NCBI GenBank assembly: GCA_973895155.1
Contig: OZ316896.1
Coordinates: forward strand, 23,393,722-23,457,721
DNA: 64,000 bases
From: Marsupella aquatica
Lineage: Eukaryota > Plantae > Marchantiophyta
Direction of reading: 5' to 3'
Under the pieces are notes generated by a model. The model was not told the origin of the DNA. It searched no databases and saw nothing but the letters and a program-made list of their open reading frames with translations. Shown here piece by piece: positions 13,113-35,507 of this stretch. The stretch's first letter is position 1, and each line of letters opens with the position of its first letter. The translations under genes and the position numbers were made by a program.

Positions 13113-15343
13113 TGTGGTGCGTCCCATGGCTCCCTAAACCCAAGAAACCCCCCAGCTCAAGCCGATTCCCGCAGGTTTTGCGCTTGGCGAGGCCGTTTCC
13201 GCGGCTTAGCGGCATGGGACGCTGCTAACCTCTACTACTACTGTTAACATTTTACACACATATACTGGACAGATCCTTCATCGGGTCATGAGATACGTAG
13301 CCGGCCTAATCTAGGCCTTCCCCTGTCTTCCCCTCCATCTTGTTAGGTATGTTTGGATTCCACGGCCGGAATGATCCCCAATAGGCTTGGTTAAGCCGCT
13401 AAGACCTCTCTTAGCTCGACACATCCAACTCTCACTCCCCTGCTTACTTTCCTTCCTTCTGGTTGATGTGGGCACTCTTCACACAAGTTAATGCGACACA
13501 CAAATAGCAAAATGACTCATTCTGACTGAGTCATACCATGCACTTGCCATATAAACAGTACATCTCATACACAAGCTCTGCGAACTAAGCCGTGAGGCCA
13601 ACTCTATTCAGCTCTTAGGCATGAGGAAACATGAATATACACAAGGGTCACTGTATGACTAACCGAGAGCTTCTCGTACTACTTGATCCCAGCCCGGCTG
13701 GTGCAAACTAAAAACTTGCTAAAGAAGAGGCCCTGAGCTCCCCGCTGCCCAGGTACTTATCCTGGTAGTGGATCCGCCATTCTTTGCATCGTAAGCCTAA
13801 TCTACCTAACAGTAATCTACTTGCCCGAATCTACCTATGTACAGCAAGGCAGGAGCACAAGTGTTGCTCCTACCAGTGGAACCGCAATCCCACTAAGCTA
13901 AGTGTCAGGGCCGCTCCTGGTCCTGATCCTAATCCTAAACTTGGAGATCAGCGCCCGCCCTGCCCACTCACGCCTCCTCCCTCCACGTCCGCCCTCCCTA
14001 AAAGGAACGGCGCCCTTGCACCGTCACGACACCGGTGGAGGATCCTTAATGGACGCCCCCAACGCTTCCTCCTCAGCCACTGCCGTAGGTTCATTCTCTG
14101 ACAGATTACCTGCCCTTGACTGAGTCAACTCTCCATCGGCCTGACTGGGTCCACCATCGGCGTCGGCATCGGCTCGGGAATCGGTTACGGCCTCAGCCTC
14201 GGCTACGGTCTCCCCAGCCTGCTCAAGAGGCGGATCTGGAATACCGGCCTCATTACTGAGTAGTTCGGCTTGGGCCGCACCACCCCCACCTATGATGATA
14301 GCGGGATCTATTGCCGTATTCATGCCGGAGGATGGTGCTGGTTCTACCTCCTTGGTCACCACGGCTTGTGGAGTCGGATTACTCCTTGACCCTGAAGGTT
14401 TCCGCTTTTTCTTCTTTTCTGGTTCGGCAGCTGGTCCCTTCCCCTTCCCACTTACTTCCGGCACTGGTGCAGGTGGCGCGGCTTTTTCTTTGGCCAGTAC
14501 CACTCCTGGTAACTTGGTTGCCCCAATTGGAGTTGGGCCTGATGAAGACAAGCACTTAAATACTGCGGCTTGTTTCTTCAGCCGCTCCGTTTGGTTGTCG
14601 GCCCGCCGCTGGAGGTTCTCCATCTTCCTCGTGATTTCCTCCAACTCCTCCTGGGTCTCATCCAGGTCCTTGCATGCCTCCTCTAGTTCCTTCTGGGCTT
14701 CCTCCTGTTCTTGTTTCAAGGTAGTCCTCTCCTCCCGGGTTGCTCTTAGCTCCTTGTCGAGCTCTGCAATGATGACAGACTCCATCTGGTTCATCTTGGC
14801 GTAAGTCTGTTCGAGCATCTCGTCCTTCTCCCTTAGGTCGGCCTTGAAGCTGGCCGTCAGGGACGCAAGCTCCTGCTGCAGCGCCATAATCCCTTGATAG
14901 GATTTCCCTAACTCGGCCTCCTTCTGCTCAAGGGCTCCGCGGATTTTCTCGAGCTCCCCCTTCAACGCCCATTCCTTTCTTTGGGTCTCCGCCATGGCCC
15001 GGCTGTTGGCTGTTATGTGGGCCTCCTCTGTATTCTTCAGCTCTTGCTTCCACTTCTCCCTCTCTTTGATCATGTCGGCCAACTCTCCCTGCGTCTGAGT
15101 CAGTTTATCCTTGATATTCTGATTATCAGCCTGCGCGGTGTCCAACTGCCCCTGCATGATGTTCAGCTCATGTCGTTTAATCCGCAGTTCATCTTGGGCT
15201 TTCTTGGCCGCCCTTAGATCTTCAATCTCGGCTTCCATCCTCCTAAGCCGCCGAATGACCTCGTCCTTCTTGCTTCTCTCTAAAGCCACCGCTTCTTCTA
15301 ATTGGTGCTTCTCCAACTGCTCCCTATGGAAAAAGGGTCCTAC
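13113..15343 (-). repeat. 5' LTR of element 1 (3' half only)
   Basis: Ends ...GGACGCACCACA next to the PBS. Near-identical to the reverse complement of about 23190-25422. Cut at 15343 by the family-B LTR. Confidence 0.92.
14024..15343 (-). pseudogene. C-terminal coiled-coil part of the LTR-encoded protein (truncated)
   Basis: The 430-aa ORF is nearly identical to the last 430 aa of 21136-24510. Confidence 0.88.
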
Positions 15344-18300
15344 TGTGATGCCGCCGGTACGGCGGTTAATGAGTGATTCAGTCTAACTGCGCTCGGCACG
15401 CGCGTTAGGTGGGTCTTAGGCCGCTATTCTTAGCATAACGATAGTATTTAGGTAATCATTAGGGGTAGGACATCATTAGGCAATAAGGGGGACTTCAGGT
15501 TCGGGCTGGCGGCGGGTCGCTATTCGCACACCCGGATTACGAGCGTGGAGGGGCCCCTCCCTCGGGTCCGTATAACGAACTTAAGGAAGCGGCCACTGAC
15601 GCACGCTGACTCAGACCGGCGGAGTGGCCGGTACACCACAAGCATGAGCGGTTCAACCTACGGGCGTCGAGGAGACGTCGGGGATCGACAAGCCCTCAAA
15701 GTATAAAAGGGGAGCCAACCCTTTGTAGTGCACCAGTCCATCAGTCCGCGCGCCAGCTTCGACCCCAGCTCTCTCGTTCTCTCTAGGTCGCCACTACTAT
15801 CTCCTCTGAATGTCGCACACGATCCTCTCCAGCTCGGCCATTTGATTCTGGACGCAGTTCCTAGCTACCGGAAGGCACTTGGCCGATTCATTGAAACACG
15901 CCAACCCGCGCTGATACGAGATCGAACGCGAATACGAGAGAGCCATCCGCCTAGCAGGACGACACCACTACGTCCTTAACTTTGACTACCCGTCTCAGAG
16001 CGAGCTTTACCGACCAGCTGAGGTATCTAGGTACTTCTTCAACAGAGACAAATATATCGGGTTCTGGGAAGCATTGCTTCGGCTTCCGGACGAGGTCTTC
16101 AATATCCCGGGTACAATCGACCTGCAGCGACATCACTTCGACCACATCCCTGCCCAGGTTTGGGCTGTCATTAACGGCGAGTCCAGTACCAACCGTTCGA
16201 CAAGGGCATCCGTACTCGCTTCAGAGAACTTCTACCAGCACCTGCAGAGCTTCATGGGAACTCGGCCATCAACCAACATGACCAACTCAGCCGGGCCCGT
16301 ACCCGTACCCGTACCCATACCCGTGCCCATGCAACCCCAGCCTCAACCTCAGCTTCAGCTTCAGCCGCAGCCTCAGCCTCAGCCGCAGCCTAGCCAAACC
16401 CCACCACCTATCACCCAGCCAGCACAGGTACGCTCTGTCATCAACGCTGTGGATCTTAGCGATGACGACGAGGCTACCCCACCCTTGACCAGGCGGCCCA
16501 GAGGAACAAGCGCTCGGGGGGCCGACACTATATCGTCCCCACCCCCTGCTCTGACCCCAGGAGCGGCCCCAGCAGACAACATAGTGACCGTGGCCGCCCC
16601 GGGCCCGTTACCAACCGCAGTGGCACTCCCCAGGCCCGATCGGGAGGATGGGGAAGTATCACCTTCCCCGAGTCAGTCACGGGGAAAGAAGAGGAAGGAA
16701 TCCGCCACTGCGTCCGGGTTACCGTTGGCCACGGTAGCCGTAGCCAAGGTGACGATGCATCGCATGGGGGAAAACGTTCATAGCAACATCCTCCATCCCA
16801 AGCATGCGGTGTACCTGAAGACTCAGGGATTTGAGCACCTCACCTCTCTCCCCTGGAACACTTGCAGGTACTACGGGGAGGACATGACAGAATTCGTCAA
16901 GAATTATGACGACGTATGTCAATAGACTCGGCTGCGGGGAAGGAATATGTCCCTCACAGAAGAACGGCTCAAGATGATCTTCGGGTTACCCGAAGGTGAC
17001 CATCAAGTCGAATCACGGGCTCCCGGGGGCAAGGGGGCCAAGTACCAATCTTCAAGTTTTCCCTCAGAGGGATCAGTAGACAACGGGTTCGTGATGAGGA
17101 CCTGCCTCATGCCCGAGATAGCTGAGCGGCTGGAGTTCCAGAGGTACGCTCTCCACATGATGGAACCCCGGGGGGAGATCTCCGCCGCCCAGGTTATCCA
17201 GGTCGAGAACTATCGACCTAGGAAATGGGCGTCGTACTTCGCTAAGAAATTCCATGAAGAGATGGAGCGGCGAAGGAAGACGCTGTACATTGGCGGGAAG
17301 GCGTATTTCGCTAGCCACATCGAAATCATTCTTGAGTGGTACGCCCGGTTTGATCGACGAACCCTTCCCCGCATCAACGTTACAAAGCTGGTCCCAGCTA
17401 GGTGGGTTTTTCCGGCATTGGAGAGACGGCCCCAACCCGAGGCCCGAAGTCCAGTGGACACGCCAGCTTCACCCACCCCACCTCCACAAATAGCTGTAAT
17501 CGTAACCGAGGAGGCGCCGGAGGGGTCGGTCGTCGCAACCGTTGATGCGACCCAACTAGCCGGGCTAAGTACAGAAGTTGGTACGGCAGAGGTCTTACCC
17601 GAACCCGGGTCTCCCAAGGACCCGTCGGTGGCAATTCCGGAGAACCGGACATTGCTGCAGGAGGACACTCCAGCCCCTTCCAACGTTATGTCCCCAGGGC
17701 TGGACGTCACTGCCCCGGCCCCTGCGCGTGTTGATGTCTGCCCGTGCCCAAATCCGGACAGGCACAACTTGGACCACCCAGAACTCTTCGTACAGGGTAC
17801 GTTTTTGAACGGGCTTCTGGGAGATTTCTCTCATCAAATTGCCCGGGATACCGGGGAGTTCATGGCCCGGAAGGTAGCCTGTTTCTTCAATCAGGAGTTG
17901 GTTGCCGCCGTAAAGGCAGGTCGGGCCCAGTCGGAGGCCCTTCAGAGGATAGAGCGGTACCGGGTGGAGTCCGTGTACCTAAAGAATGAAGTGGCGGCTC
18001 AAGAGGCTGAGCTTCTGCAACTGCGACCCAAGGTTGCAGCCGCCGATGAGTTGTTAGCAAAGGCGTACGCTCTTACCGCCCTAGCCGAACAGGCCAAAGC
18101 TGGGAACGAGGCCGAGATTACACGACTCCGGAACCAGATTGACAGTTTGAAGAAACAAGCTGTCACCTGGCAGAAAGACCTGGAGGAGGCCGAGGAGCGA
18201 GCCCAGCGGGACGCGACGGAGATAGCCACGCTGCAGGCCGAGATGGCGCGGCTCCAAACCGAGGCCGAGAAGCAGGACCAGCTGGCGGGTAAACTGACGA

Positions 18301-19379
18301 GCGACGCCCAGCAGTTGGAGGAGGCATGTCAGGAGGTAGCAGAGGAGACGGACGCGGCGAGGCGAGAGAACGAATCTCTGCTGGACCAGGTCCAGCTCCT
18401 CAAAGCGGACAATGACAGGCTTCGAAGGCAGCGGGATGGCCGTTCCCATTCGGGCGGCTCTGGCAAGCGTGCTAGGCATTAGCGGCGGAGTAGGAATAGA
18501 TTAGGATTAGGATTGGCTTAGTCAGGCTCTTGGGACAGGCACCTGCCTTAGGTACAGCAGCGCTGCCCTGCTGTCTAGCCTGCGTAGATTAGGATCTTCT
18601 AATAAGACACAACCATTTTCCGGCCTGACTGTCAGCTTAGTTAGGACCTTAGTCAGCGAATCTTCGGCGAGAGGACACCCCGTCCCTCGGCTCTTAGTAT
18701 TTAGTGCACCCCTCGGTAGAGGCAGGGGGGGTTTTTAGTTTCAGAGTCGGACATCCGCGGGACATGCGGGGAGTCCCGACCTCTGGGAATGACAGAGTAC
18801 CAAGGGGAGGGGGTAGGACTAAGCTCGTCGGGCGAGTGCGGAGCCGGGCTCCGTTGTAGTGTGCACCCTCGGCCTTGAACCTGTGCATTCCAGGGCTGTC
18901 GTGTCAACTAAGTGTACGCATATGTTCCCTTTGTAGTAAAATCCTTTCCCATCATTTTCCTTCGTGTAAATCGAGATTGTATGCATGTGTGCGCATATGT
19001 GTGTGGGTTTCTCGTATATGGGTGGCAGCGCCAGGCCGAACGCACTACCCGAGACGTGCATAGGGTGCAGCCTGTGGGTAAGTGGTTGCGAGCACGGGTT
19101 GAGGACCTATATCATCGAATCCGGATCGAAGGTGGACAGCACGAAGGCTTAGAAGCCCTTAAGCCGGGGTCGATCCTGCTATCGACTAAGGTACGTTCCG
19201 GCGGCGGAACACAAACCATACCTAGGAGGTGTCCATATTTAGCAGTATGCGCACTTAGCGCTAGTTTACGAGAATAAGGTGCATTACGTGCTTCCCTTCC
19301 TGCCCGAACCCTCAGATTTACGAGGGATGTGCCCGTCTAAGCTGAAGTCTGAGTTAAGGCCGAAGCCTACGACGTGACA
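15344..19379 (+). repeat. 5' LTR of a family-B gypsy element (about 4.0 kb)
   Basis: Starts TGTGATG exactly where family-A homology breaks. Ends CGTGACA and is followed by a PBS and gag. The right end is slightly uncertain (12-nt gap to the PBS). Confidence 0.8.
15810..18482 (+). pseudogene. Family-B LTR-encoded protein (about 890 codons, three premature stops), homolog of the family-A LTR protein
   Basis: ATG 15810 and ORFs 16074 and 16947 are all in one frame. Motifs LPW..EFV..TRLRG..LTEERLKMIFGLP..NGF..TC align to family A. C-terminal coiled coil. Confidence 0.8.
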
Positions 19380-19900: not shown

Positions 19901-20758
19901 ATGATCCCTTGATAGGCTTTCCTTAATTCGGCCTCCTTCTGCTCAAGGGCTCCGCGGATATCCTCAAGTTCCCCTTTTAATGCCCTCTCCTTTCTCTGGG
20001 TCTCTGCCATGGCCCGATTGTTGGCTGCTAAGTGGGCCTCCTTTGCGTCCCTTAGCTCCCGCTTCCACTTCTCCTTTTCCTTGACTGCGCCGGCCAACTC
20101 TCCTTGGGTCCGAGTCAGTTTATCTTTGATAATCTGATTGTCAGACTACGCGGTATCCAACTGCCCCTGCATGATGTTTAGCTCATGCCGCTTGATCCGT
20201 AGCTCATCTTGGGCTTTCTTGGCCATCTTCAGGTCTTCCACCTCGGCTTCCATCTCCCTAAGCCATTGGATGACCTCGTCCTTCTTGTTTCTCTCCAAAG
20301 CCACCACTTCTTCTAATTGGTGCTTCTCCAACATCTCCCTCTGGAAAAAGGGTCCCTGCTCCAACTCCTCCCCAAAGATGCTGAGCGCAAGTTCCCCACA
20401 CATCTCCCCGTACTCCATGGCTCTATCTTTAGCATAGGTGAAGTAAGTAGAAGTCATCGGCATCAACCACCGCGGCCTCTATTCCCAAGCCGTCTTGCGG
20501 ATCTCTTCTATGGTGGCAAGAGGGTTGTTTCTTTTTTCGGCAAGCCGCCTGATGTCCTCCGGCCAATCTCCTCCTGGCAAATCTTTTTCCCTAGCCAGGG
20601 CTGCCTTCTCTTCCTCCCTAAGTTGCTTCTGAAACTCTTGTGCCGTTTGCTTGATGCCGTCAAAGCTTGGGGGAGCGACATCTGGTGGGGGAGACTCGGG
20701 GCTACTCTGCTGGGTGGGGTCCCCTCGAACTACTCTTGGAAGCGTGGGGATAAACCGG

Positions 20759-23700
20759 TGTGATGCCTAGACAGGAATCACTCGGCCAGTTAAGTGGGTA
20801 AACCAGGAAGGCACCCTAGGAACACCTTAGTATAGGGACAAAACAAGGAAAATATAAACCATTAGGGGCAACCATGGAACCCGGGCCGAGGCCGGAGGTA
20901 AGGACGCTGAGGGTGAAAACTCGATTAGGGTTAGGGCGCGTTAAGCGTCGGCAGCTAGGAAGGATCAACGGGAAGAAGGACCGGCAGAGGAGAGGGGTAA
21001 GGAGCGCTTGCAGGAGATGGTGGCTCATATTGCGAGCACGAACTAGGCAGACGACTACGGGAGGCCAACTACTGTCAGCTGCTTAGGCAAGCACTCGGGG
21101 AGAGAGTAGATATCGACGATCGACCTAAGGAGGGTATGAGCAACGTCAATCAAGCGGCACATTTCTGGGGATGCCTGTTCGAACGGGCAACTGAGTACAT
21201 CAAGACTTACGAGGACGAGGAATCAGAAAGGGCAGCTCGAGAACGGCAGGAGCTCGCTCGATTGTGGGAGCTGCAGAAGACGGCTTTCTTAGGAGGCGAA
21301 CTCATCAAGGACGAGTTCCTGTGGACGCCTACTTCCAATCAACTCGACGATCTTCTGTTTTGCAAAGACAGCGTCGTCGGCATCCAAGAGGCCATCAAGA
21401 ACTGCAACGACATACACTGGGAATTAAAGGGAAGCACGGAAAGGTGGACCCAGGCAACGGTGCTAGGAGAAACCTCCACGGCAGCAGGGATGAAGAGGAA
21501 GGGAGCCGTCAACGATGAAGCCACCCCGACAAAAAGAACGAGGTCAGCGGCACCAAAGAAGCCAGCCGAGCAGCAGAGCAGGAGGCAGGGAGAAGCCGAA
21601 GAGGAGGAGGTCGATCCCATCAAGGCCATTCCAACCAGGGATGACACCTGGAAGGGCTGGGCGGCAACCCTACCGGTGGAGGTGCAACTACATTTTGCAC
21701 GGGAGGAGGATGCATGCTTCACGGCCATGCAGACCAAGAAGTACCAAGGCTTCATGGCCGGATCCGGCTTAGAGGCCTTTGTAAGATTACCATGGCTGAA
21801 GCCGGAGGTACCGGAGTCAGACCTATTAGAATTCGTGGGGTCATGGGAACCCGAGACCAATTGCACGAGGATATATGGGAAGGATTTCTATCTTACTCCC
21901 AAGGTAATTGCCGAAGTGTTTGGCTTGCCGATAGGCAATAAGACCAAAGTTGATACCAGGAAGACCTTGCCTGACAAGGAGTTCCGGTCGTTCCCTGGGC
22001 CATCAACGAAGAATGGCTTCTTCCGGAACACCTGCACCAACCCGCACATAGGAGAGATGATCGACTTCTTGCGGGTGACCATGCATTGTAACTTGCCGAG
22101 GGCAGAGATCGGCAAGGCACAGGTCTATCTGGCAGAAAGGCCAGACCCAAGCCGGGACTACAACGGGTACCTCCTCAACCAATTGAAGAAGATCTTAAGG
22201 GAGGAGCAGCAGGTAATCGGCATGGGGAGCGTGTCGCGGCTTGGCTATCACATGCCGCTGTTGTGCCGGTATGCCAGAGGTCAGACTTTTGCCCCGGTAC
22301 TCCCCCTGCAGGTAAGGGCACCCGAGGAAGCTCCAACGCCGAGGCCGTTGGCTGAGAAGCCTCAACCACCTGTTAGCCCTACGATCGAGCAGGTGTTTAG
22401 ACCCAGGAAGGAGGACTTGCCGATGCAGCAACCAGGCATGCAGAGTCTGCTGAAACTACTGGAGAAAGAAAAGAAATCGGCATCGGCAACAACAACGGCA
22501 ACGGCAACAATGCAGGACACTACTACAGAGGTAGGCCTACACCGGCTCACAAGAGAAAACCCCTTTGCTGGAGACAAGGAGAGAATCAGGCCGGAATCCA
22601 AGCCAGGTGTTCGAATGTACGTGGGAACCTCAAGCTCTGAATCTGAGGCAGAATTGCCTGAAGCTCCTACCGACGAAGAGGAGAGGGAGAAGCCGGACGT
22701 CCAAGAGGTAGAGGAGGCAGTGGAGGACTGCAGCCATGATAATTCCGGCTATGGGTCGGACCATCACGTTCCAGGAGTAAGGACCTGTGGCCGGTTTGTC
22801 CCCACACTTCCAAGGGTAGTGCGAGGGGACCCCAACCAGCAGAGTAGCCCTGAGTCTCCCCCACCAGATGTTGCTCCCCCGAGCTTCGACGGCATAAAAC
22901 AGACGGTGCAGGAATTTCAGGAGCGAATCAGGCAGGAAGAGGAGGCAGCCCTGGCTAGGGAAAAGGATTTACCAGGAGGAGATTGGCCGGAGGACATCAG
23001 GTGGCTAGCCGAAAAAGGAAGCAAACCTCTAGCCACGATTGAAGAGATCCGCAGGACGGCTTGGGAGCAGAGGCCGCGATGGGCGATGCCGATCACTTCT
23101 ACTTACTCCACCTACGCTAAGAATAGAGCCATGGAGTATGGTGAGATGTGTGGGGAACTTGCGCTCGGCATCTTTGGAGAGGAGTTGGAGGTAGGACCCT
23201 TTTTCCATAGGGAGCAGTTGGAGAAGCACCAATTAGAAGAAGCGGTGGCTTTGGAGAGAAGCAAGAAGGACGAGGTCATTCGGCGGCTTAGGAGGATGGA
23301 AGCCGAGATTGAAGATCTAAGGGCGGCCAAGAAAGCCCAAGATGAACTGCGGATTAAACGACATGAGCTGAACATCATGCAGGGGCAGTTGGACACCGCG
23401 CAGGCTGATAATCAGAATATCAAGGATAAACTGACTCAGACGCAGGGAGAGTTGGCCGACACAATCAAAGAGAGGGAGAAGTGGAAGCAAGAGCTGAAGA
23501 ATACAGAGGAGGCCCACATAACAGCCAACAGCCGGGCCATGGCGGAGACCCAAAGAAAGGAATGGGCGTTGAAGGGGGAGCTCGAGAAAATCCGCGGAGC
23601 CCTTGAGCAGAAGGAGGCCGAGTTAGGGAAATCCTATCAAGGGATTATGGCGTTGCAGCAGGAGCTTGCGTCCCTGACGGCCAGCTTCAAGGCCGACCTA

Positions 23701-25422
23701 AGGGAGAAGGACGAGATGCTCGAACAGACTTACGCCAAGATGAACCAGATGGAGTCTGTCATCATTGCAGAGCTCGACAAGGAGCTAAGAGCAACCCGGG
23801 AGGAGAGGACTACCTTGAAACAAGAACGGGAGGAAGCCCAGAAGGAACTAGAGGAGGCAGGCAAGGACCTGGATGAGACCCAGGAGGAGTTGGAGGAAAT
23901 CACGAGGAAGATGGAGAACCTCCAGCGGCGGGCCGACAACCAAACGGAGCGGCTGAAGAAACAAGCCGCAGTATTTAAGTGCTTGTCTTCATCAGGCCCA
24001 ACTCCAATTGGGGCAACCAAGTTACCAGGAGTGGTACTGGCCGAAGAAAAACCCGTGCCAACTGCACTAGTGCCGGAAGTAAGTGGCAAGGGGAAGGGAC
24101 CAGCGGCCGAACCAGAAAAGAAGAAAAAGCGGAAACCTTCAGGGTCAAGGAGTAATCCGACTCCACAAGCCGTGGTGACCAAAGAGGTAGAACCAGCACC
24201 ATCCTCCGGCATGAATCCAGCAAAAGATCCCGCTATCATCACAGGTGGGGGTGGTGCGGCCCAAGCCGAACTACTCAGTAATGAGGCCGGTATTCCAGAT
24301 CCGCCTCTTGAGCAGGCCGGGGAGGCCGTAGCCGAGGCTGAGGCCGTAACCGATTCCCGAGCCGATGCCGACGCCGATGGTGGACCCAGTCAGGCCGATG
24401 GAGAGTTGACTCAATCAAGGGCAGGTAATCTGTCAGGGAATGAGCCTACGGCAGTGGCTGAGGAGGAAGCGTTGGGGGCGTCCATTAAGGATCCACCACC
24501 GGTGTCGTGACGGTGCAAAGGCGCCGTTCCTTTTAGGGAGGGCGGACGTGGAGGGAGGAGGCGTGAGTGGGCAGGGCGGGCGCGGATCTCCAAGTTTAGG
24601 ATTAGGATCAGGACCAGGAGCGGCCCTGACACTTAGCTTAGTGGGATTGCGGTCCCACTGGTAGGAGCAACACTTGTGCTCCTGCCTTGCTGTACATAGG
24701 TAGATTCGGGCAAGTAGATTACTGTTAAGTAGATTAGGCTTACGATGCAAAGAATGGTGGATCCACTACCAGGATAAGTACCTGGGCAGCGGGGAGCTCA
24801 GGGCCTCTTCTTTAGCAAGTTTTTAGTTTGCACCAGCCGGGCTGGGATCAAGTAGTACGAGAAGCTCTCGGTTAGTCATACAGTGACCCTTGTGTATATT
24901 CATGTTTCCTCATGCCTAAGAGCTGAATAGAGTTGGCCTCACGGCTTAGTTCGCAGAACTTGTGTATGAGATGTACTGTTTGTATGGCAAGTGCATGGTA
25001 TGACTCAGTCAGAATGAGTCATTTTGCTATTTGTGTGTCTCATTAACTTGTGTGAAGAGTGCCCACATCAACCAAAAGGAAGGAAAGTAAGCAGGGGAGT
25101 GAGAGTTGGATGTGTCGAGCTGAGAGAGGTCTTAGCGGCTTAACCAAGCCTATTGGGGATCATTCCGGCGGCGGAATCCAAACATACCTAACAAGACGGA
25201 GGGGAAGATAGGGGAAGGCCTAGATTAGGCCGGCTACGTATCTCATGACCCGATGAAGGATCTGTCCAGTATATGTGTGTAAAATGTTAATAGTAGTAGT
25301 AGAAGGTTAGCAGCGTCCCATGCCGCTAAGCCGCGGAAACGGCCTCGCCAAGCGCGAAACCCGCGGGAATCGGCATGAGCTGGGGGGTTTCTTGGGTTTA
25401 GGGAGCCATGGGACGCACCACA
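20759..25422 (+). mobile_element. Family-A solo LTR, 4664 bp
   Basis: TGTGATG...CACCACA ends with 5-bp TSD ACCGG (20754-20758 and 25423-25427). Both ends match the PPT-adjacent and PBS-adjacent termini of the proviruses. Confidence 0.95.
21136..24510 (+). CDS. Intact 1124-aa LTR-encoded protein (PMD/Transposase_32-like core, basic NLS-like clusters, long coiled coil)
   Basis: Uninterrupted ATG-to-TGA ORF wholly inside the solo LTR. Contains LLEFVGSWEPETN...LTPKVIAEVFGLPIG, KRKG..PTKRTR and KKKKRKP. No obvious transmembrane segment. Confidence 0.88.
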   Translation: MSNVNQAAHFWGCLFERATEYIKTYEDEESERAARERQELARLWELQKTAFLGGELIKDEFLWTPTSNQLDDLLFCKDSVVGIQEAIKNCNDIHWELKGSTERWTQATVLGETSTAAGMKRKGAVNDEATPTKRTRSAAPKKPAEQQSRRQGEAEEEEVDPIKAIPTRDDTWKGWAATLPVEVQLHFAREEDACFTAMQTKKYQGFMAGSGLEAFVRLPWLKPEVPESDLLEFVGSWEPETNCTRIYGKDFYLTPKVIAEVFGLPIGNKTKVDTRKTLPDKEFRSFPGPSTKNGFFRNTCTNPHIGEMIDFLRVTMHCNLPRAEIGKAQVYLAERPDPSRDYNGYLLNQLKKILREEQQVIGMGSVSRLGYHMPLLCRYARGQTFAPVLPLQVRAPEEAPTPRPLAEKPQPPVSPTIEQVFRPRKEDLPMQQPGMQSLLKLLEKEKKSASATTTATATMQDTTTEVGLHRLTRENPFAGDKERIRPESKPGVRMYVGTSSSESEAELPEAPTDEEEREKPDVQEVEEAVEDCSHDNSGYGSDHHVPGVRTCGRFVPTLPRVVRGDPNQQSSPESPPPDVAPPSFDGIKQTVQEFQERIRQEEEAALAREKDLPGGDWPEDIRWLAEKGSKPLATIEEIRRTAWEQRPRWAMPITSTYSTYAKNRAMEYGEMCGELALGIFGEELEVGPFFHREQLEKHQLEEAVALERSKKDEVIRRLRRMEAEIEDLRAAKKAQDELRIKRHELNIMQGQLDTAQADNQNIKDKLTQTQGELADTIKEREKWKQELKNTEEAHITANSRAMAETQRKEWALKGELEKIRGALEQKEAELGKSYQGIMALQQELASLTASFKADLREKDEMLEQTYAKMNQMESVIIAELDKELRATREERTTLKQEREEAQKELEEAGKDLDETQEELEEITRKMENLQRRADNQTERLKKQAAVFKCLSSSGPTPIGATKLPGVVLAEEKPVPTALVPEVSGKGKGPAAEPEKKKKRKPSGSRSNPTPQAVVTKEVEPAPSSGMNPAKDPAIITGGGGAAQAELLSNEAGIPDPPLEQAGEAVAEAEAVTDSRADADADGGPSQADGELTQSRAGNLSGNEPTAVAEEEALGASIKDPPPVS

Positions 25423-27153
25423 ACCGGCCACAGGTCCTTACTCCTGGAACATGATGATCCGACCCATAGCCGGAGTTATCATTGCTGTAGTCCTCCACCG
25501 CCTCCTCCACTGCTTGGACTCCCGGCTTCCCCTTCTCTTCTCCGCGGGTAGGAGCCTTAGGCTGTTCTGCCTCGGATTCGGAGCTTGAGGCTCCCACATA
25601 CATTTGAACTCCCGGCTCGTGTTCCGGCCTCCTCCTCTCCTTGGCTCCGGTAAAGGGGTTTTCCTTCATGAGTCATCTTAGGCCTACCTCTGGGGCAGCG
25701 TCCTGTACCGGTGGGGTTGCCGTTGCCGGTGCCGGTGCCGTTTGCTTTTCCTTCTCCAGCATCTTCAGCAGATTCTGCATGCCTGGTTGCTGCATCGGCA
25801 AGTCTTCTTTTCTTGGCCTAAACACCTGTTTGATCGTAGGACTAGCAGGCTGGTTGGGCTTCTCTGCTGCCGGCCTCTGTTCCGGAGCTTCCTCTGGTGC
25901 CCTTACCTCCAGGGGAAGTACTGGGGCAAAGATCTGACTTCGGGCATACTGGCACAACAGCGGCATGTGATAGCCAAGCCGGGATACGCTTCCCATGCCG
26001 ATCACCTGTTGTTCCTCCCTTAAGATCTTCTTCAATTGGTTGAGGAGGTACCCATTGTAGTCCCGGCTTGGGTCTGGCCTCTCTGCCAAGTAGACTTGTG
26101 CCTTGCCGATCTCTGCCCTTGGCAAGTTGCAATGCATGGTCACCCGCAAGAAATCGATCATCTCTCCGTTGTGCGGGAAGAAGCCATTCTTCGTCGATGG
26201 CCCCGAAAATGACCAGAACTCCTTGTCAGGCAAGGTCTTCTTGGTATCTACTTTGGTCTTATTGCCCATCGGCAAGCCAAACACTTCGGCAATCACCTGG
26301 GGAGTGAGATAGAAATCCTTCCCATACACCCTCGTGGCATTGGTCTCGGGCTCCCATGACCCCACGAATTCTAATAAGTCTGAATCCGGCACCTCCGGCT
26401 TCAGCCATGGGAATCTTACGAAGGCTTCCAAGCCGGATCCGGCCATGAAGCCCTGGTACTTTTTGGTCTGCATGGCCGTAAAGCATGCATCCTCCTCTCG
26501 TGCAAAATGTAGTTGCACTTCCTCTGGTAGGGTCGCCGCCCAGCCTTTCCAAGTGTCATCCTTGGTTGGAATGGCATTGATGGGATCAACCTCCTCCTCT
26601 TTGGCTTCTCCCTGCCTCCTGCTCTGCTGCTCTGCTGGCTTCCTTGGTGCCGCCGACCTTGTTCTTTTTTCCGGGGTGGCCTCTTCGTTGCTGTTTCCTT
26701 TCCTCTTCATCTCGGCTGCCGTGGATGTTTCTCCTAGCACGGTTGCCTTCGTCCACCCCTCCGTGCTACCCTTCAACTCCCAGTGCACGTCGTTGCAGCG
26801 GTTGATGGCTTCCCGAATGCCGACGATCCTGTTTTTGCAAAACAGAAGGTTGTCGAGCTGATTGGTAGTAGGAGTCCACAAGAACTCGGCCTTGATGAGT
26901 TCTCCTCCTAAGAAGGCGGTCCTTACCCCTCTCCCTGCCTGGTCTTCCCCCCCATTGGTTTACCCCTAGCTGCCGACACTTAGCGTGCCCTAACCCTAAC
27001 CGTGTTTTCTCCCCCGGTGTCCTTACCTCCGGCCTCGGCCCGGGTTCCATAGTCACCCTTAATTGTTTATATTTTCCTTGTTTTTGTTCCTATACTAATG
27101 TGTTTCTAGGGTACACTCCCGTTTTCCCACTTAACTGGCCCAGTGATTCCTGG

Positions 27154-30100
27154 CTAGGCATCACATAGCTCCCCACTTAATTGTGAAGCGTCCTTGCGAA
27201 CAACTTCATCTTCGTCCATATAGTATTCTTGAGGCGGTCGTAATGGATGCGAACTGGGTATACCTCTCCAGTAATGTTGGCTAATTGTACCGAGCCATTG
27301 GAGAACTTCATTGCTACCCTGAAAGGTCCTAACCAGCAAGTGTAAAGCTTCCCCGGAAACCTACTATACCTACTGTCATAAAGTAATACAAGATCTCCTA
27401 TGTGAATACTAACTGGTTTCAACCTCTTATCATACTGTTGCTTCATGGTATTTTGTCTATGTTCTATCCTCTCAGCTGAAATCATTCTTGCCTCTTCTAA
27501 AGCTTCTAACCTATATTCTCGCTCCTTTAGGCTTTCCTCCTCTGAGGCTCTCTCCTCAATTGTAACTTGAAATGTAGGAATCTCAAGTTGCATGGGTACC
27601 AGAGCTTCCTGTCCAAAGGTTAAGAAAAACGGTGTATGACCGGTAGTGGATTTATAGGCTAAATTGTAAGCAAAAACAGCAGCAAACAATTTATCATCCC
27701 AATCGAGTTTGTTCTGAGCTACCGTCTTGTTCAATATCTTTCCTATAATTCCATTTGCTCATTCTGTCAACCCATTTGCCTTTGGATGGTAGGGAGTAGT
27801 AGGCCTATGTCTAACTAAATACTGCTCATTTAAACGACTAATTATATCATTCAGAAAATGGGTTCCTCTATCACTAACTAATTCTAGGGGTGCACCATAC
27901 CTGGTGAAGATTTGCTCATACATGAATCGAGCCGTAGTAATTGCATCATCCTTCGTTGTCGGCCTGGCCTCTACCCACTTAGTTGCATAATCCGTGGCCA
28001 GGATTATGTACTTGTTTCTTCGAGGGTGGGTCAATGGTTTTAGGGGTCCGATGTAATCAATACCCCACTTCTCGAATGGTGCCAGAGGTAGAATAGGATG
28101 CAGTGGATGTCTTGTGGATGCCCTTGGTCCTCCCGCTCGCTGACAAGGATCGCATTGTTTGATAAACTGATAGACATCCTTGTGCAAGGTGGGCCACCAG
28201 TAACCGACATTTAATATCTTTTTAGACGTGGTTACTGGAGCAAAATGTCCCCCGGCCTCCTCCCATGCATGGCCCGTAGGGCTCATTTTACCTCTCCTTT
28301 TTCCAAACACCTTTGAATCGTGCCGCTGATTCCATGCCTGTGCAATATGCCCTTAATGCACTGATACTGTCTGACCTTCCGCAAAAAGACTGCGGCTTGC
28401 TCACGGCTGAGTCCTGGCTGTAATCTGGAAGTGCTGAGAAATTGTAAAATCTCAGGGTACCATGTATCAGCTATTTCCACAACGAATAGCTCCTCGTCGG
28501 GGAATCGATCATCGATGCAATCCGTGGCAGGTTCACCTGTGATCCTTGAAAAGAAGTCGGCATTGGCGTGTAGCTTTCCCGGCTTGATTTTTAGCTTGTA
28601 GTCAAACTCCTGTAATAGCAAAATCCATCTTGCTACCCTGCCTGTAAGGTCCGGCTTATTGACTAGGTACTTCAAACTTTCATGATCGGTATGAAAGATT
28701 ACTTTGTACCCTAGTAAATAATGCCTAAACTTTTTACATGAATAAATGATTCCTAATGCTTCTCTTTCTATGGTGGAGTAGTTTCGTTCGGCATCGGCAA
28801 GCTGGCGGCTTGCAAAGTATATGGGATGGTCCCTTCCTTTCTCATCCAACTGACTTAGTACTGAGCCGATACAGAAGCCTGAGACATCTACAAAGACATA
28901 AAAATCCTTGTTCCAGTCTGGTGCTATCATGACTGGAGCCTCTACTAACATCTGCTTCAATTCTACCACCGCTGTTACTCGTTCTGGTGTGGGTTCAAAG
29001 TCTGCACCTGCCTTGAGCATGTTGGTTAATGGTAAAGCTAGCTTGGCAAAATCCTTGATGAACGGCGATAATAACCAATGCAACCCAAGAAGGATCTCAC
29101 ATCCTTTATGTTCTTAGGTTGCATGATATCTAGCCACACTGCTAGCTTACCTTTGTCAATCTCAATGCCCTTCTTTGATACCTTGTGACCTAGTAGCACC
29201 CCCTCTGTTACTGCAAAGAAACATTTATCTGGGTGTAACTTGAGACCTACCTCTCTGCATCTCAAGAAGGTTTTCCTGAGGTATTTAGCATGTTTTGATG
29301 CCTTCCCAAACACTGCAAAGTCATCAATGAAGATTTCTATGAACTTTCTCAAGTAGTCATGGAAAATGTTCACCATTAATCGTTGGAACATCGTTGGTGC
29401 ATTACAGAGTCCAAACGACATACGATTGAAGACATAGATCCCCCATTCCGTGATGAAGGCCGTCTTGATTTGATCCTCCTGCCTGATCCTGATTTGGTTA
29501 TAACCCGAGTAACCATCCATTAATGAGTATAGTTCATGACTGGCTACCATATCTAGTACCATATCAGTAAAGGGTAAAGGAAAATGGTCTTTTAATGTAG
29601 CCTCATTCAACTTCTTGTAATCCTGACCAACCCGGATCTTTGGTTTACCATCGGGTCCAGCTTTCTTGGGAACTATCACAATTGGAGACACCTAGTCTGA
29701 GTGTAGGATTGGAGTGATGAATCTGGCTTCCACTAGTTTATCGATTTCAGCCTTGACCATCAGAGAATACTTAGGGTTCATCCTTCGAATTGGTTGTCGA
29801 AATGATTTGGCCCCTAACATGAGATAGATTCGGTGTTCTCCTAGTTTTGGGTCTACTCCCTTCAGATCTTGGTGACTCCATGCGAACACATCCTGGAATT
29901 CAATCAGTAATTCACTGATCTCTTTCTCGAGCTCAGGTGTTAGGTCCCTCCCTAAGTTCAGTTCCCTTCCTTCTCCTAAGTCGAGCTTTCGGTATTGCCG
30001 TGCTTGGATCATATTAATCTGCTTCTTCAAATTCGGGTCCAGCTCGGCTTCCAGCCTCTCCAGTCTCATACCTCCATAGACTGGAATCTCGGTTGTACTA

Positions 30101-30402
30101 GCCGAGTTGGTTGACTTAATTTCTCCCTGGTCATCAACAGACTGTTCCCTTGCCATTCTGCTTGGTTTTGATTTAGTTGTCGGCTTCCCTTCCTGACTCG
30201 GCTCTGGGTTGTTCCCATGCATCTCATCTATTCCTGCTTCCTGAGGGTCAGGCTGTCATGCTCTTCCTGCTTCTAGTAGGGCCTCAATTTGCTCTGCCCT
30301 CGAGATCGGCTTGTAAGCTGATCCCCTTGTATTTAATTTGTTGCCGATGATCGATGGCGTTGTGGATCCCGTCGGCTCTGCCACAACGCCTGAGGAAAAT
30401 CC
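27154..30402 (-). pseudogene. pol of element 2 (RT, RNase H, integrase) with stops and frameshifts
   Basis: Fragments 29692-30222, 29038-29691, 28283-29083, 27759-28310 and 27177-27734 are collinear with element 1 pol. Confidence 0.92.
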
Positions 30403-33322
30403 ACTGTCCTTGCTGCAGCTCCCCACCTAGCCGTTTTATCCAACTGGTCCACCTCTTTTACTTCCTCCAGAATTGAAGCTAAAAAGGTGGATTCTATTGT
30501 AAAGCAATCCTCGGTCTCTTCTTCACCTTCCTCCAAGTCACCTTCCATAGGTTCTTGCCATAATCCGTTGGGGGGTACTTCTGGTCCAAAGACACTTTCT
30601 TTGGTTAGGTCAGTGAGGCATTCTAGCCAACGTACTTCATCGGCTGACTCCAGTCCACTGTCATACCCATCTACTTCCCTGATGTTTTTCCTACGGTCAT
30701 CCTTAGTGTCCCAGGATACCGTGATAGAGGGGGTCCCAAAAGTGAACTCCTTCTTACCCCAATCTTCTATTACCTTGGCTAGGTACAGCCATGGTCTGCC
30801 AATTAATATTCGGAACGACGTAGGGTTCACCGGCTTCATCACTACATAGTTAATGCTAAAGAAGATTCCTCCTATCTCAGTCTTGATGCCGGTTAACACT
30901 CCCGTGGGAATGACCTGATACCCATTGGCCATGTTTAACACTCTTCCAGTCATCTCCGGCGTTAGACCCCATCCTTTTGCTGTTGAATCAATCATAATAC
31001 ATACCCCGGATCCTCCATCAATGGGTACCCGTAGTAATATTTCTCCTTGAATCATTAATGGTAATGCTGGGGCTCCTTGATCTTCTTCTATCATCAGCAC
31101 GTCGGATTTGGTTGCTACCTTGGGTAATCGTGGCTTGCCGAGAATCGCCTTCCTTAACTGCTTCCGGAAGTACGGGCTATTTTTCAAAAGTTGACCTACT
31201 ATTGCTGAGACTCTAGACTCTAGCACATCTTTAGCCAGGTCATAGGGAACTATCGGCTTCTCTTCTGGCGGTGTCTCTATCTTGGCTTCGGCCTGTTTTT
31301 CCACGCTGGTTTCCACAGCCCTTGGATCCTTCGAAGCAAACAACACTTTTGCTCATTTCACATCCTTGGCTATGGCTTCGGTATTCTCCAGGGTTTCTAA
31401 TTCTCGCAATTGTTCCTTAACACTAGCCGTAATAGAGGGGTAGAACAACTTAGGATGATCTCGATTGAAGTTGCTGTCCTGTGAAGGATTGGGCTCACTG
31501 GTGGGCTCATGGCTTACCTGTGTTGCCGACGCCTTTCCTTCCCCTTCCGTTGATGTTGACGAAGAGTCGATCCTTTCTTCCTTAACCTTCCCTTTATTTT
31601 TGGCCAGCCCATCCCACCTTTCCTTCCTTCTGGTGGATCGAGTAGAGACCCGGTAGCAATCATGATCCAAATCCTCTTCTGAGAAGGTTGATAGGGCCTC
31701 GGCCTCATCATCAGATGGTCCAAACTCTGCCTCGGCATCCGTTTGCCATCCGAGTTCGATGTGGTTGATTTGAACTCCTCCGGGGGGTACCTGTCGGTAA
31801 AACCTTGACTGGCAAGAGTTTATGATTTGCGGCCAGGCCTGCCAACCAAGTAGGACATTGTCCTAGCATATGACCTTCCTGTCGGCATCCCATACATAGC
31901 TGAGCTGGTTGTCCATCACCTTGTTTATGTGCATTTGGGCATTCCCTAGCAAAATGGCCAGGTTGACCACAATTATAGCATGCCGCAAATCTTTGCACAT
32001 TCGGCCTAGGAGGTACTGACGGATTTTGAATAATCCGAGGATACATCTCTCCCGGATTGTTCCTTAATCCCGACCAGAGAGATGCAGGTCTGTTGGATAG
32101 GTCTTGTGCTCCAGTCTCACTGATGCCGAAAACACTATCAGCGGCATCTCCTAGGAAGTACTCTACTTCTCCCTGACATGGTCTGACCTCAGCCACATGC
32201 CGAACATGACTGGTATTAAGTTTAGGACACGCATCTTTATGGTGTCCGGTTTTATAACATAAGGCACACCATACAGAGCTATCCTCCTGTACTACCTTCT
32301 TCTTTGGTTTTACCTCTGCTATTATAGCCTTAAGCTGCTCGGTAAGGGCTACAATGTTATCTGGTGTTTTAGCCTCTAGCTTGACTTTCATCTTCCCTCT
32401 CCTTCTGCCCTTCCTTTTCCTAGTTTTTTCTTCTTCAGAACTAGAAGATGACTCACTCTTGCTACTTCCACTATCCGAGCTTGAGTTATCACTTCTTGAC
32501 TTCTTAGAATGTTTCTTTTTCTTATCTTTTTTCTTATGGGGTGATCCCTCCTCCGATGAGGAACTCTCAGACTTAAGCTGTTTCTTCCGGCTTGTGATAT
32601 CTGCATTAATGTATAATTGAATATCCTTAATTGCCTCGGCCAAGGTCTCTGGGTTCTCCTTCCTAATTGCAAAACTCATCTTTTGTGGCAAAGCATTCAC
32701 TAACCATTGAAGTTGCATACCTTCAGATGCATTGGTCTTTGTACGTCTTACCAACTTTTGGAAGCGTTGCAAGAACTTTCTGAAGGATTTGTTCTCCTTG
32801 AACCGAAGTCGTCCCAACTTCAGCACTGCTAACTCTGAAGTTCCAATGGGTCAAAATTCTTTGACAAATAGTGATCTAAAAGTATTCTAGATGGCTTGAT
32901 CTTCCACGTCCAATGCTCTGTACCACGGCCTAGCCTCACCTTTGAACAGGCCGGGAAGAATTTGCATCTTGATGGCCGATTCTCCATTTGCTGCAGCGGT
33001 TCCCTCGAAGTCATCCAACCATTCGTCCGGATCCTCATCTCCTCTCCCATGAAAGGCCTTGTAATGAATGCACGACTGTTGGCTCAGTCTGGTCCCTGGC
33101 CTCTCATCTGGCCCTGTCTCTGGTTCCCCATGTCGGTTGGAGACTCACTTCTAAGACCGACTCTTCTTCTGGTATGTCTTCTTTGATGCCACTTTCAGTT
33201 ACGGAGCTACTAGCTCTTTCTGCCCCTCTCAGTCGTTGTGTATCATGCCACCCGGCAAGCTGCTGCAGACGAGCTCTCTCCCATTGAATCGCTCTTTCCT
33301 CCCTCGGCGTAGGGTCAGTCAT
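30333..33322 (-). pseudogene. gag-protease of element 2
   Basis: Gag with three knuckles, then aspartic protease motifs VPIDGGSGVCIM and ILIGRPWL. The frame ends at TAA 30333, just past the slippery site. Confidence 0.88.
30343..30402 (-). promoter_or_regulatory. Candidate -1 ribosomal frameshift signal (element 2)
   Basis: G GAT TTT CCTCA, then perfect stem GGCGTTGTGG/CCACAACGCC. The loop GCCGA is complementary to downstream TCGGC. Confidence 0.72.
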
Positions 33323-33369
33323 TACCTACGCTTCCTTCCTAACTTCATATCTCACGGCTTAAGAAATGC

Positions 33370-33387
33370 CCCCTCCATCTAGCGCCA
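33370..33387 (-). other. Primer-binding site of element 2
   Basis: TGGCGCTAGATGGAGGGG adjacent to the LTR end at 33392. Confidence 0.78.
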
Positions 33388-35507
33388 AAAATGTGGTGCG
33401 TCCCATGGCTCCCCAAACCCAAGAAACCCTCCTGCACAAGCCAATTCCCGCAGGTTTTGTCCTCAGCGAGGCCGTTTCCTCGGCTTAGCGGCATGGGACG
33501 CTGCTAATCCTCTACTACTATTATTAACACTTTACACACATATACTGGACAGATCCTTCATCGGGTCATGAGATACGTAGTCGGCCTAATCTAGGCCTTA
33601 CCTTGCCTTCCCCTCGTCTTCTTTAGGTATATTTGGATTCCGCCGCCGGAATGATCCCCAATTGGCTTGGTTAAGCCGCTAAGACCTCTCTCAGCTCGAC
33701 ACATCTAGCTCTCACTCCCTTGCTTACTTTCGTTCCTATCTTAGTTGATGTGGGCACTCTTCACACAAGTTAATGCGACACACAAATAGCAGAATGACTC
33801 CTTCTGACTGAGTTATACCATGCACTTGCCATACAAACAGTAGATCTCATACACAAGCTCTGCGAACTAAGCCGTGAGGCCAACTCTATTCAGCTCTTAG
33901 GCATGAGGAAACATGATTATACACAAGGGTCACTGCATAACTAACCGAGAGCTTCTCCTACTACTTGATCCCAGCCTGCTGGTGCAACTAAAAACTTGCT
34001 AAAGAAGAGGCCCCGACCTCCCCGCAGCCCAGGTACTTATCCTGGCTGTGGATCCGCCCAATTCCTTGCATCGTAAGCCTAATCTACCTAACTGTAATCC
34101 CGCCGTTGTAAGTTCTCCATCTTCCTTGTGATTTCCTCCAACTCCTCTTGGGTTTTGTCCAGGTCCTTCCGTACCTCCTCCTGCTCCTTCTGGGCCTCCT
34201 TCAACTCCTTCTGGGCTGCTTGCAACTCCTCTGCTAAGGTAGTCCTTTCTTCCTGGGTTGCTCTTAGCTCCTTGTCGAGCTCCTTCACGACTTCAGACTC
34301 CATCTTGTTCATCTTGGCATAAGTCTGATCGAGCTGGTCGTCTTTCTCCCGCAGGTCGGCCTTGAAGCCGGCTGTCAGGGATGCAAGCTCTTGCTGCAGC
34401 ACAATGATCCCTTGATAGGCTTTCCTTAATTCGGCCTCCTTCTGCTCAAGGGCTCCACGGATATCCTCGAGTTCCCCTTTTAATGCCCTCTCCTTTCTCT
34501 GGGTCTCCGCCATGGCCCGATTGTTGGCTGCTAAGTGGGCCTCCTCTGCGTCCCTTAGCTCCCGCTTCCACTTCTCCTTTTCCTTGACTACGCCGGCCAA
34601 CTCTCCTTGGGTCCGAGTCAGTTTATCTTTGATAATCTGATTGTCAGACTGCGTGGTATCCAACTGCCTCTGCATGATGTTTAGCTCATGCCGCTTGATC
34701 CGTAGCTCATCTTGGGCTTTCTTGGCCGTCTTCAGGTCTTCCACGTTGGCTTCCATCTCCCTAAGCCGTCGGATGACCTCGTCCTTCTTGTTTCTCTCCA
34801 AAGCCATCACTTCTTCTAATCGGTGCTTCTCCAACATCTCCCTGCTCCAACTCCTCCCCAAAGATGCTGAGCGCAAGTTCCCCACACATCTCCCCGTACT
34901 CCATGGCTCTATCTTTAGCATAGGTGGAGTAAGTAGAAGTCATCGGCATCAACCACCGCAACCTCTATTCCCAAGCCGTCTTGCGGATCTCTTCTATGGT
35001 GGCAAGAGGGTTGTTTCTTTTTTTGGCAAGCCGCCTGATGTCCTCCGGCCAATCTCCTCTTGGCAAATCTTTTTCCCTAGCCAGGGCTGCCTTCTCTTCC
35101 TCCCTAAGTCGCTTCTGAAACTCTTGTGCCGTTTGCTTGATGTCGTCAAAGCTCGGGGGAGCGACATCTGGTGGGGAGACTCGGGGCTACTCTGCTGGGT
35201 GGGGTCCCCTCGAACTACTCTTGGAAGCGTGGGGATAAACCGGCCACAGGTCCTTACTCCTGGAACATGATGATCCAACCCATAGCCGGAGTTATCATTG
35301 CTGTAGTCCTCCATCGCCTCCTCCACTGCTTGGACTCCCGGCTTCCCCTTCTCTTCTCCGCGGGTAGGAGCCTTAGGCTGTTCTGCCTCGGATTTGGAGC
35401 TTGAGGCTCCCACATACATTCGAACTCCCGGCTCGTGTTCCGGCCTCCTCCTCTCCTTGGCTCCGGTAAAGGGGTTTTCCTTCATGAGTCGTCTTAGGCC
35501 TACCTCT

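Follow-up and report, generated by a model that had tools for sequence, protein, structure and literature searches.

Accessory proteins of plant transposable elements

The closest described counterparts of the gene considered here are the VANC proteins of the Arabidopsis VANDAL elements (MuDR DNA transposons), which, in the accessible part of the source, bind short family-specific motifs of 8-9 bp, located in non-coding tandem arrays, and cause methylation loss (PMC5735166). VANC and MAIN/PMD proteins have a common fold, coiled-coil oligomerisation is predicted for both VANC and the Athila domain, and VANC is described as dicot-specific, again in the accessible part of the text (PMC13547354). 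MAIN, MAIL1 and MAIL2 have been reported to possess the VANC fold and to counter Polycomb silencing at particular DNA motifs, and the PMDs of transposons have been hypothesised to be anti-silencing (bioRxiv 10.1101/2024.09.27.615353, accessible part). Partial texts of two further papers state that angiosperm gypsy elements encode PMD-A (PMC5418596) and that Transposase_32 is kin of Athila ORF1 (PMC11728184). The present gene lies inside a solo long terminal repeat (LTR) of a Ty3/gypsy retrotransposon family, here termed family A, in a stretch of 64,000 nucleotides from the liverwort Marsupella aquatica (assembly GCA_973895155.1, contig OZ316896.1, positions 23,393,722 to 23,457,721 of the forward strand; hereafter the window). 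It probably resembles VANC21 in its predicted fold, and is like the VANC proteins in being a transposon-encoded accessory protein with a predicted coiled coil and in having divergent paralogues that are each accompanied by their own enriched word. It differs from them in belonging to an LTR retrotransposon of a non-seed plant, in its location inside the LTR, in the shorter and mostly coding words, in having no DUF1985 match and in sharing only 7% identity with VANC21.

Extra open reading frames (ORFs) of the Athila, Ogre and Retand/Tat elements, which include Athila ORF1 (PF03078), Transposase_32 (PF20167), PMD-A (PF10536) and Transposase_28, are comparable in their non-chromoviral Ty3/gypsy host, globular domain, disordered linker, SMC-like coiled coil and nuclear signal. 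These ORFs are described as internal, located either 5' of gag or downstream of pol and ahead of the 3' LTR (PMC7264820; also the accessible parts of PMC6317226, PMC11963269 and PMC6431247), whereas the LTR itself holds the family-A gene, for which the internal region leaves no space. What the extra ORFs of plant gypsy elements do is considered an open question (PMC7264820; accessible part of PMC11963269). Moss Tat-like elements were reported without extra ORFs in the accessible part of one study (PMC4408406), and a gene internal to the LTR may explain why bryophyte Tat-like elements have been reported in this way. The family-A LTRs, at 4-5 kb, are within the range known for Ogre and giant plant LTRs (1.9-6.5 kb; accessible parts of PMC6431247 and PMC6317226), which are described there as long non-coding repeats without a gene, whereas 72% of the LTR described here is one selected frame.

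Searches of the open-access full-text literature by exact phrase found no LTR-internal ORF in a plant element. Genes encoded by LTRs are known from retroviruses, namely sag of mouse mammary tumour virus and the overlapping nef of lentiviruses; like the 5S RNA in the LTR of Cassandra, as given in partial text, they are genes within an LTR that are doubled in each provirus, as here, but they are much shorter and have unrelated products, not a 1124-aa chromatin-type protein. Xretpos of Xenopus is another possible precedent, for which the literature consulted did not confirm an LTR-encoded gene. The accessible parts of PMC7251063, PMC4585706 and PMC1560396 hold no precedent for an LTR-internal ORF.

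A gene under purifying selection inside a solo LTR

The focal unit is a true solo LTR, which sits in the 3' LTR of another family-A copy (element 2; Table 1). It begins with TGTGATG at 20759 and ends with CACCACA at 25422, its start being the sequence that follows the polypurine tract (PPT) at 1815 and 27165 and its end the sequence that precedes the primer-binding site (PBS) at 13113 and 33392. These junctions with the ends of full elements, together with the TG..CA termini and the 5-bp target-site duplication (TSD) ACCGG on both sides, bear out the original prediction of a solo LTR, and no PBS, PPT or gag-pol is joined to the unit. The alternative of a short-LTR element holding an internal ORF was ruled out, because there is no direct repeat between the two ends of the unit, the longest same-strand match being 8 bp. 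The claims that about 72% of the LTR is a single sense ORF and that a TATAAA lies upstream of it also proved correct, the ORF spanning 1124 aa without a stop (72.4% of the LTR) and the TATAAA, at LTR base 95, being the only one in the LTR and conserved in all five copies that cover the position. The TATAAA is the presumed promoter, and the most conserved section of the non-coding 3' part of the LTR (~24809-25060) is likely the polyadenylation region.

Element 2 shows how the gene is arranged in a full-length copy. Its 6.2-kb internal region encodes gag, reverse transcriptase (RT), RNase H and integrase by Pfam, scanned in all three frames, together with a protease that has a weak Pfam match (E 0.17), and the same scan found no aRH or chromodomain. 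No extra ORF was found in this region either. The integrase reading frame crosses the PPT and terminates 3 codons into the LTR, leaving no internal env-like slot, as had been noted. The ORF region occupies the same place in both LTRs (3.0% divergence between the 5' and the 3' copy across 2,575 sites), so the claim of two gene copies per provirus likewise holds, the ORF of each LTR of element 2 now carrying 3 stops. A whole family-A element would be ~15.6 kb in length, of which the LTRs would make up 60%. Eight family-A LTR copies or fragments span 23,000 of the 64,000 bases; they had all been said to carry the ORF, and all eight do overlap it, but only in the focal copy is it complete and intact. 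Solo-LTR formation had been expected to leave a complete transcription unit behind; of the two complete solo LTRs, the focal one has an intact ORF and the older one has lost it.

The ORF is a real gene under purifying selection. Between the two complete solo LTRs, the ratio of nonsynonymous to synonymous divergence (dN/dS) over 1052 codons is 0.31 (0.25-0.37) or 0.39 (0.33-0.47), according to transition weight, so that the comparison across subfamilies suggested with the original prediction gave values far below 1 and a functional gene. Residues 166-385 of the protein, with values of 0.13-0.17, are constrained to the same degree as gag (0.13-0.16) and RT-RNase H (0.14-0.18). Sister LTRs of a single insertion, which reflect drift since integration, gave 0.83-1.03, and the non-coding LTR end, used as a control, gave 0.93-1.19. 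Within the 515 codons covered by all five copies, the differences shared between subfamilies comprise 28 nonsynonymous and 56 synonymous changes, compared with 27 nonsynonymous (including 2 stops) and 12 synonymous among the private changes of sister LTRs (Fisher p 3.8e-4). Selection acts in the transposing lineages.

Other coding arrangements were considered and rejected. A longer ORF starting from ATG 20874 would add 87 codons with a dN/dS of 1.09-1.32 and no third-position excess, is open in two of the four copies translated and would make the focal copy frameshifted; because the additional codons are neutral and this ATG is only 21 bases past the TATA, ATG 21136 was taken as the start. The sole antisense frame with low dN/dS holds 21-25 stops. 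An env-like ORF was dismissed, as the protein has no transmembrane segment (maximal 19-residue hydropathy 0.82) and the ORF sits inside the LTR, not between pol and the 3' LTR.

Homologues and predicted fold of the accessory protein

The Pfam matches of the focal protein are limited to weak coiled-coil ones, and no match to Transposase_32, Athila ORF1 or PMD-A was above the curated cut-off. A profile of the conserved domain identified 69 homologues among 1.84 billion representatives, and the 20 that were looked up comprised 6 from Calypogeia fissa, 2 from Riccia sorocarpa and 12 without an organism name. Transposase_32 matched 4 of the 63 aligned members weakly (at most 17 bits, where the cut-off is 45; E up to 1) and did not match the focal protein. 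A word-index search with residues 1-400 confirmed none of 4,979 candidates, and a search of longer proteins confirmed 2 of 4,101, both from Riccia. In the annotation of Riccia sorocarpa (P0171, P0177, P0208, P0209), the domain shares a gene model with a DDE_Tnp_4 (Harbinger-type) transposase, and seems therefore to ride in DNA transposons as well.

Prediction of the fold from the single sequence was unusable (predicted local distance difference test, pLDDT, 32.7), and an AlphaFold2 model of the domain built from 63 sequences reached a pLDDT of 92.2 and a predicted template-modelling score (pTM) of 0.89. Exhaustive structure alignment of this model with 48,161 chains placed 9lnk_A, VANC21 with its target DNA, at the top (Z 8.5, root-mean-square deviation 3.9), with 203 of the 220 residues aligned at 7% identity; the next chain had a Z of 2.1, and only these 2 of the 48,161 chains reached Z 2. 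A fold relation between the domain and VANC21 is considered probable from this model, because of the gap to the next chain, the coverage and the fact that the match is itself an accessory protein of a plant transposon. Basic residues of the domain are conserved at aa 275, 308, 313, 322 and 381. Realignment of the 92 chains listed by Foldseek gave none at Z 2, and profile searches of PDB sequences returned coiled-coil noise only. MAIN, MAIL1 and MAIL2 differ from the present protein in being angiosperm host genes, and neither a solved structure nor a sequence match to them was obtained. One unnamed 805-aa protein of the viral database BFVD (A0A890CAY5) was a borderline fold match (E 0.046, template-modelling score 0.33). 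The predicted VANC/PMD-type domain and coiled coil tie the protein to known transposon accessory proteins, so that its location is more of a novelty than the protein itself.

A second family and the candidate DNA words

The LTR of family B, next to which a PBS and the beginning of gag are found, encodes a homologue of the family-A ORF in the same location (295 aa aligned at 25% identity, E 2e-20). Domain, linker and coiled coil succeed one another as in family A, and a TATA box lies upstream. The PBS of family B is near-identical to that of family A, and the LTRs of the two families align in short motifs only. The shared layout indicates that the location inside the LTR is older than the split of families A and B. 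The new aspect is that the gene resides within a 4-kb LTR in two families, each with an enriched DNA word of its own.

As with VANC, a short family-specific motif is built up in the encoding element, [AT]GCCGA in family A and GTAC in family B, both chosen post hoc. GCCGA is a top word of both the family-A ORF and the family-A internal region relative to dinucleotide shuffles, and TGCCGA is the top 6-mer of the ORF and, independently, of gag relative to synonymous-codon shuffles. [AT]GCCGA occurs 19 times in the family-A ORF (6.3 expected) and 19 times in the gag, protease, RT and integrase ORFs (5.8 expected), with none of 150 shuffles as high in either case, compared with 2 occurrences in the family-B ORF (3.0 expected) and a depletion in four control ORFs of LINE (long interspersed nuclear element) and host origin (2 against 7.5 expected). 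Family A has 3.1-4.5 such sites per kb, compared with 0.5-1.2 elsewhere, and among the 16 XYCG words only GCCG passes a z of 2 in family A. GTAC occurs 18 times in family B (7.8 expected; 0 of 500 shuffles) and is not enriched in family A. CG sites in the GCCG context are better conserved between subfamilies than other CG sites (66 of 88 against 84 of 136, p 0.043). The word TTAG, which is in excess in the non-coding parts of three LTR families (19 against 7.6, 20 against 7.6 and 25 against 14.1), was not used as a candidate target, being chosen by eye and not family-specific.

Of the 78 changes that sister LTRs acquired after insertion, 69 are transitions, and 53 of these fall at CG or CHG. 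Methylation by the host would leave such a pattern, and family-A copies are thus likely methylated.

Proposed role and alternative explanations

Judging from the modelled fold and the enriched words, there is about an even chance that the LTR-borne gene encodes a protein with a VANC21-like fold that binds the family-specific word and keeps the copies of its family from being silenced. The TATA at LTR base 95 would drive an mRNA ending at the LTR's own polyadenylation region, and the accessory protein would oligomerise, enter the nucleus and bind the word scattered through the LTR and gag-pol, where it would counteract DNA methylation or another form of chromatin silencing, both in cis and in trans. 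A gene within the LTR is present twice per provirus and survives LTR-LTR recombination, and a fresh solo LTR would remain a source of the protein for as long as neutral decay had not disabled the gene. The wider scenario, in which a bryophyte Ty3/gypsy lineage moved a VANC-type anti-silencing gene into its LTR, each family came to pair its own protein with its own word, and solo LTRs serve as autonomous anti-silencing cassettes that de-repress copies in trans, is put forward tentatively and seems doubtful at present.

Several observations weigh against an anti-silencing role. The structural match was not recovered by Foldseek, which gave no match at E 0.001 in PDB or BFVD, and sequence searches gave no match to VANC21, PMD or DUF1985; a Z of 8.5, a deviation of 3.9 and an identity of 7% are in the range that mostly helical models can reach by a common arrangement, and a shared fold proves no function, as MAIN and MAIL1 have the VANC fold and act differently. 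The words are short, come from one window and were picked after the fact, and 19 of the 21 focal sites lie inside the ORF, mostly in coding sequence, whereas VANC motifs lie in non-coding arrays. Family C, which has no ORF, nevertheless holds 18 GTAC and 9 A[AT]GCCG sites in 2.5 kb. The methylation-type decay of the copies means that any protection is at best partial. The C-terminal tail of the protein is weakly constrained (dN/dS 0.52-0.88), and the 7 stops in the older solo LTR give no indication of selection on solo copies.

The predicted fold, the nuclear signal and the word enrichment would equally suit a VANC/PMD-fold factor that binds the family word and acts at another step, such as activation of the LTR promoter, import or tethering of the pre-integration complex, or steering of insertion into family copies. 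The copies in the window are heavily nested in each other, as such steering would produce, but nested insertion is common for LTR elements generally; the Retand and Grande accessory proteins have been proposed as nuclear regulators of an unknown step (PMC7264820; accessible part of PMC11963269). Such a role is nonetheless rather improbable, given that anti-silencing is the role of the one transposon-encoded match with a characterised function and that the word contains CG and CCG, which are methylation targets, and is spread over coding regions with no clustering at the promoter or ends. A protein unrelated to VANC, with a structural, RNA-binding or movement role, would turn the fold match into a common helical arrangement and the words into mutation or codon-pair bias. 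This would agree with a Z that is borderline for a helical model, with the absence of Foldseek and sequence support, with the post hoc choice of words and with the 80% of the protein that is disordered or coiled coil. It is an unlikely explanation, since the match covers 203 of 220 residues, exceeds the next of 48,161 chains by 6.4 Z units and falls on a plant transposon accessory protein, the homologues are independently, if weakly, linked to Transposase_32, the word turns up again on both strands and in separate ORFs of the family while being depleted in neighbouring LINE and host ORFs, and the lack of a transmembrane segment means that the protein is not env-like.

The layout of the LTR is a separate matter. 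The original prediction placed the ORF inside U3; its location inside the LTR stands, whereas U3 is one of several candidate placements, the TATA at base 95 fitting a very long R or U5 equally. If the ORF lay in R or U5, a single TATA would start both RNAs, termination in the 5' LTR yielding the accessory mRNA and read-through the ~15 kb genomic RNA, with gag expressed from a spliced or second-promoter RNA. Both this placement and the RNA scheme that goes with it are credible possibilities that fall somewhat short of even. The sole TATAAA at base 95 in all five copies, the TATA upstream of the family-B ORF and the lack of any canonical TATA from the stop codon to the probable polyadenylation region are in favour of it. 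On the other side, we know of no R of ~4 kb, TATA-less promoters are common, the copies that extend over 24895 and 25270 have kept the TATAT-like elements found there, and a shift of the plus-strand primer site, for which the purine run at 24550, after the stop, is suggestive, would be a simple one-step capture of a 3' extra ORF into U3. That the ORF is a mere passenger or artefact, arising from a nested insertion, a chance frame or an assembly error, could be suspected from the fact that 5 of the 8 copies are fragments and three carry stops, all in a single window. This suspicion is refuted, with a negligible chance of being right, by the exact ends and TSDs of two independent solo LTRs, the identical position in both LTRs of a provirus, a dN/dS far below 1 and the homologue in the LTR of another family.

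Lineage of family A

The best named matches of the RT-RNase H region are from Calypogeia fissa (61-72%) and Riccia sorocarpa (52-60%). In a tree of the 84 of 121 sequences that span at least 400 residues, family A joins Calypogeia with a support of 1.0, in a clade that also includes Riccia, Marchantia and Adiantum, and the angiosperm matches are placed apart. The PBS of family A appears to resemble the 3' end of tRNA-Asn. Element 2 has the domain order GAG-PROT-RT-RH-INT without a chromodomain or aRH, which is that of Athila, and lacks by Pfam scan the second RNase H of the Tat clade (TatI-III, Ogre, Retand); the 5-bp TSDs and the ~15.6-kb length of the element depart from the 4-bp TSD and 4.4-10 kb of Phygy and Selgy. 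Athila elements have a 5-bp TSD and a PBS for tRNA-Asp or tRNA-Asn (PMC6317226 supplement 3). Set against the table in PMC6317226, the 5-bp TSD and the absence of aRH agree with Athila and rule out Tat, Phygy and Selgy. Family A is an Athila-related Ty3/gypsy family, and is called related, not a member, because labelled REXdb references were not among the sequences of the tree.

Scans of metagenomes for relatives with flanking DNA confirmed none of 335 pattern matches. Eight metagenome loci (L001-L008) have the same PBS-like 19-mer, and gag, RT or the domain of family A was found in none of the eight.

Other features of the window

The coordinates of the focal LTR, of the remaining copies of family A and of the LTRs of families B and C are given in Table 1.

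Table 1. Positions of LTR retrotransposon features in the 64,000-nucleotide window of Marsupella aquatica
Feature	Position	Strand	Remarks
Family-A solo LTR (focal)	20759..25422	+	4,664 bp, TG..CA ends
Target-site duplication ACCGG, 5' copy	20754..20758	+	
Target-site duplication ACCGG, 3' copy	25423..25427	+	
TATAAA	20853..20858	+	sole TATAAA of the LTR; kept in 5/5 copies covering the position
Intact accessory ORF, 1124 aa	21136..24510	+	stop-free, 72.4% of LTR, purifying selection
Conserved globular domain, aa 166-385	21631..22290	+	predicted VANC21-like fold, dN/dS 0.12-0.17
Predicted coiled coil, ~aa 691-945	23206..23970	+	proline-free
KKKKRK, candidate nuclear localisation signal, aa 995-1000	24118..24135	+	
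Non-coding 3' part of LTR	24511..25422	+	TGTA-rich, highest conservation ~24809-25060
14-bp hairpin	25163..25176	+	identical in LTRs of families A, B and C
3' LTR of element 1	1..1815	-	cut by window edge; 1.3% from focal LTR; ORF open over 479 codons
5' LTR of element 1, 3' half	13113..15343	-	1.9% from focal LTR; followed by PBS
3' LTR of element 2	19901..27165 (27165-25423 + 20758-19901)	-	hosts the focal LTR insertion
Internal region of element 2	27166..33391	-	PBS, gag, protease, RT, RNase H, integrase, PPT
5' LTR of element 2	33392..40120	-	same ORF, broken by two insertions and one deletion
Second complete family-A solo LTR	40981..45631	+	TSD AGGAG; 13.4% diverged; ORF decayed
Family-A LTR fragment	40162..46397	+	contains the second solo LTR as an insertion
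Family-A LTR, 3' part at window edge	62485..64000	-	PBS does not follow
Family-B LTR	15344..19379	+	4,036 bp, TG..CA; followed by PBS and start of gag
Family-B LTR-borne ORF	16254..18482	+	742 codons, one internal stop; homologue of family-A ORF
Family-C solo LTR	36145..38623	+	2,479 bp, TSD CGGCA; LTR motifs common with A and B; no frame >105 codons

The ORF of the second complete solo LTR contains frameshifts in addition to its 7 in-frame stops. The LTR part at the window edge (62485-64000) is a mosaic, which differs from the focal copy by 1.4% in the non-coding 3' part and by 17.7% in the ORF tail, a sign of recombination between subfamilies. The 14-bp hairpin, present at 25163-25176, 19196-19209 and 38288-38301, lies near the 3' end of three LTR families that are otherwise unalignable and is a candidate RNA signal. 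The solo LTR of family C contains many GTAC sites and a tandem array whose units of ~26 bp all include a CGGC word; as a matter of speculation, family C could be a non-autonomous user of the protein of another family.

Element 1 is interrupted in its integrase by a LINE (2236-8230, + strand) with a common 16-bp stretch at both ends, an ORF1 of 556 aa (DUF4283) and an ORF2 split into parts of 205 and 1068 aa. The 5' LTR of element 2 contains an AT-rich 350-bp insertion (~35511-35862) whose ends are inverted and which shows a duplication of 9-10 bp, similar to a miniature inverted-repeat transposable element or to Mutator. Pieces of a pentatricopeptide repeat gene with a DYW motif at the end (51092-52493, - strand) imply organellar RNA editing in the host; to our knowledge, complex thalloid liverworts are without such editing. 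A 405-aa ORF at 59085-60302 (+ strand) has a weak protein-kinase match (E 0.0012).

Implications for transposon silencing in early-diverging plants

The system offers a candidate protein and a candidate word, with the second family serving as a built-in specificity control, and programmable demethylating proteins with new target words would be of practical interest. If the proposed role is correct, sequence-specific anti-silencing extends from the DNA transposons of Arabidopsis to the retrotransposons of early-diverging plants, in the form of a retrotransposon version of the VANC system that has been hidden from surveys of extra ORFs. The VANC/PMD fold would then have been present in transposons well before flowering plants, which would bear on the origin of this fold. 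The location of the gene inside the LTR makes solo LTRs possible sources of a trans-acting protein, and not of promoters alone.

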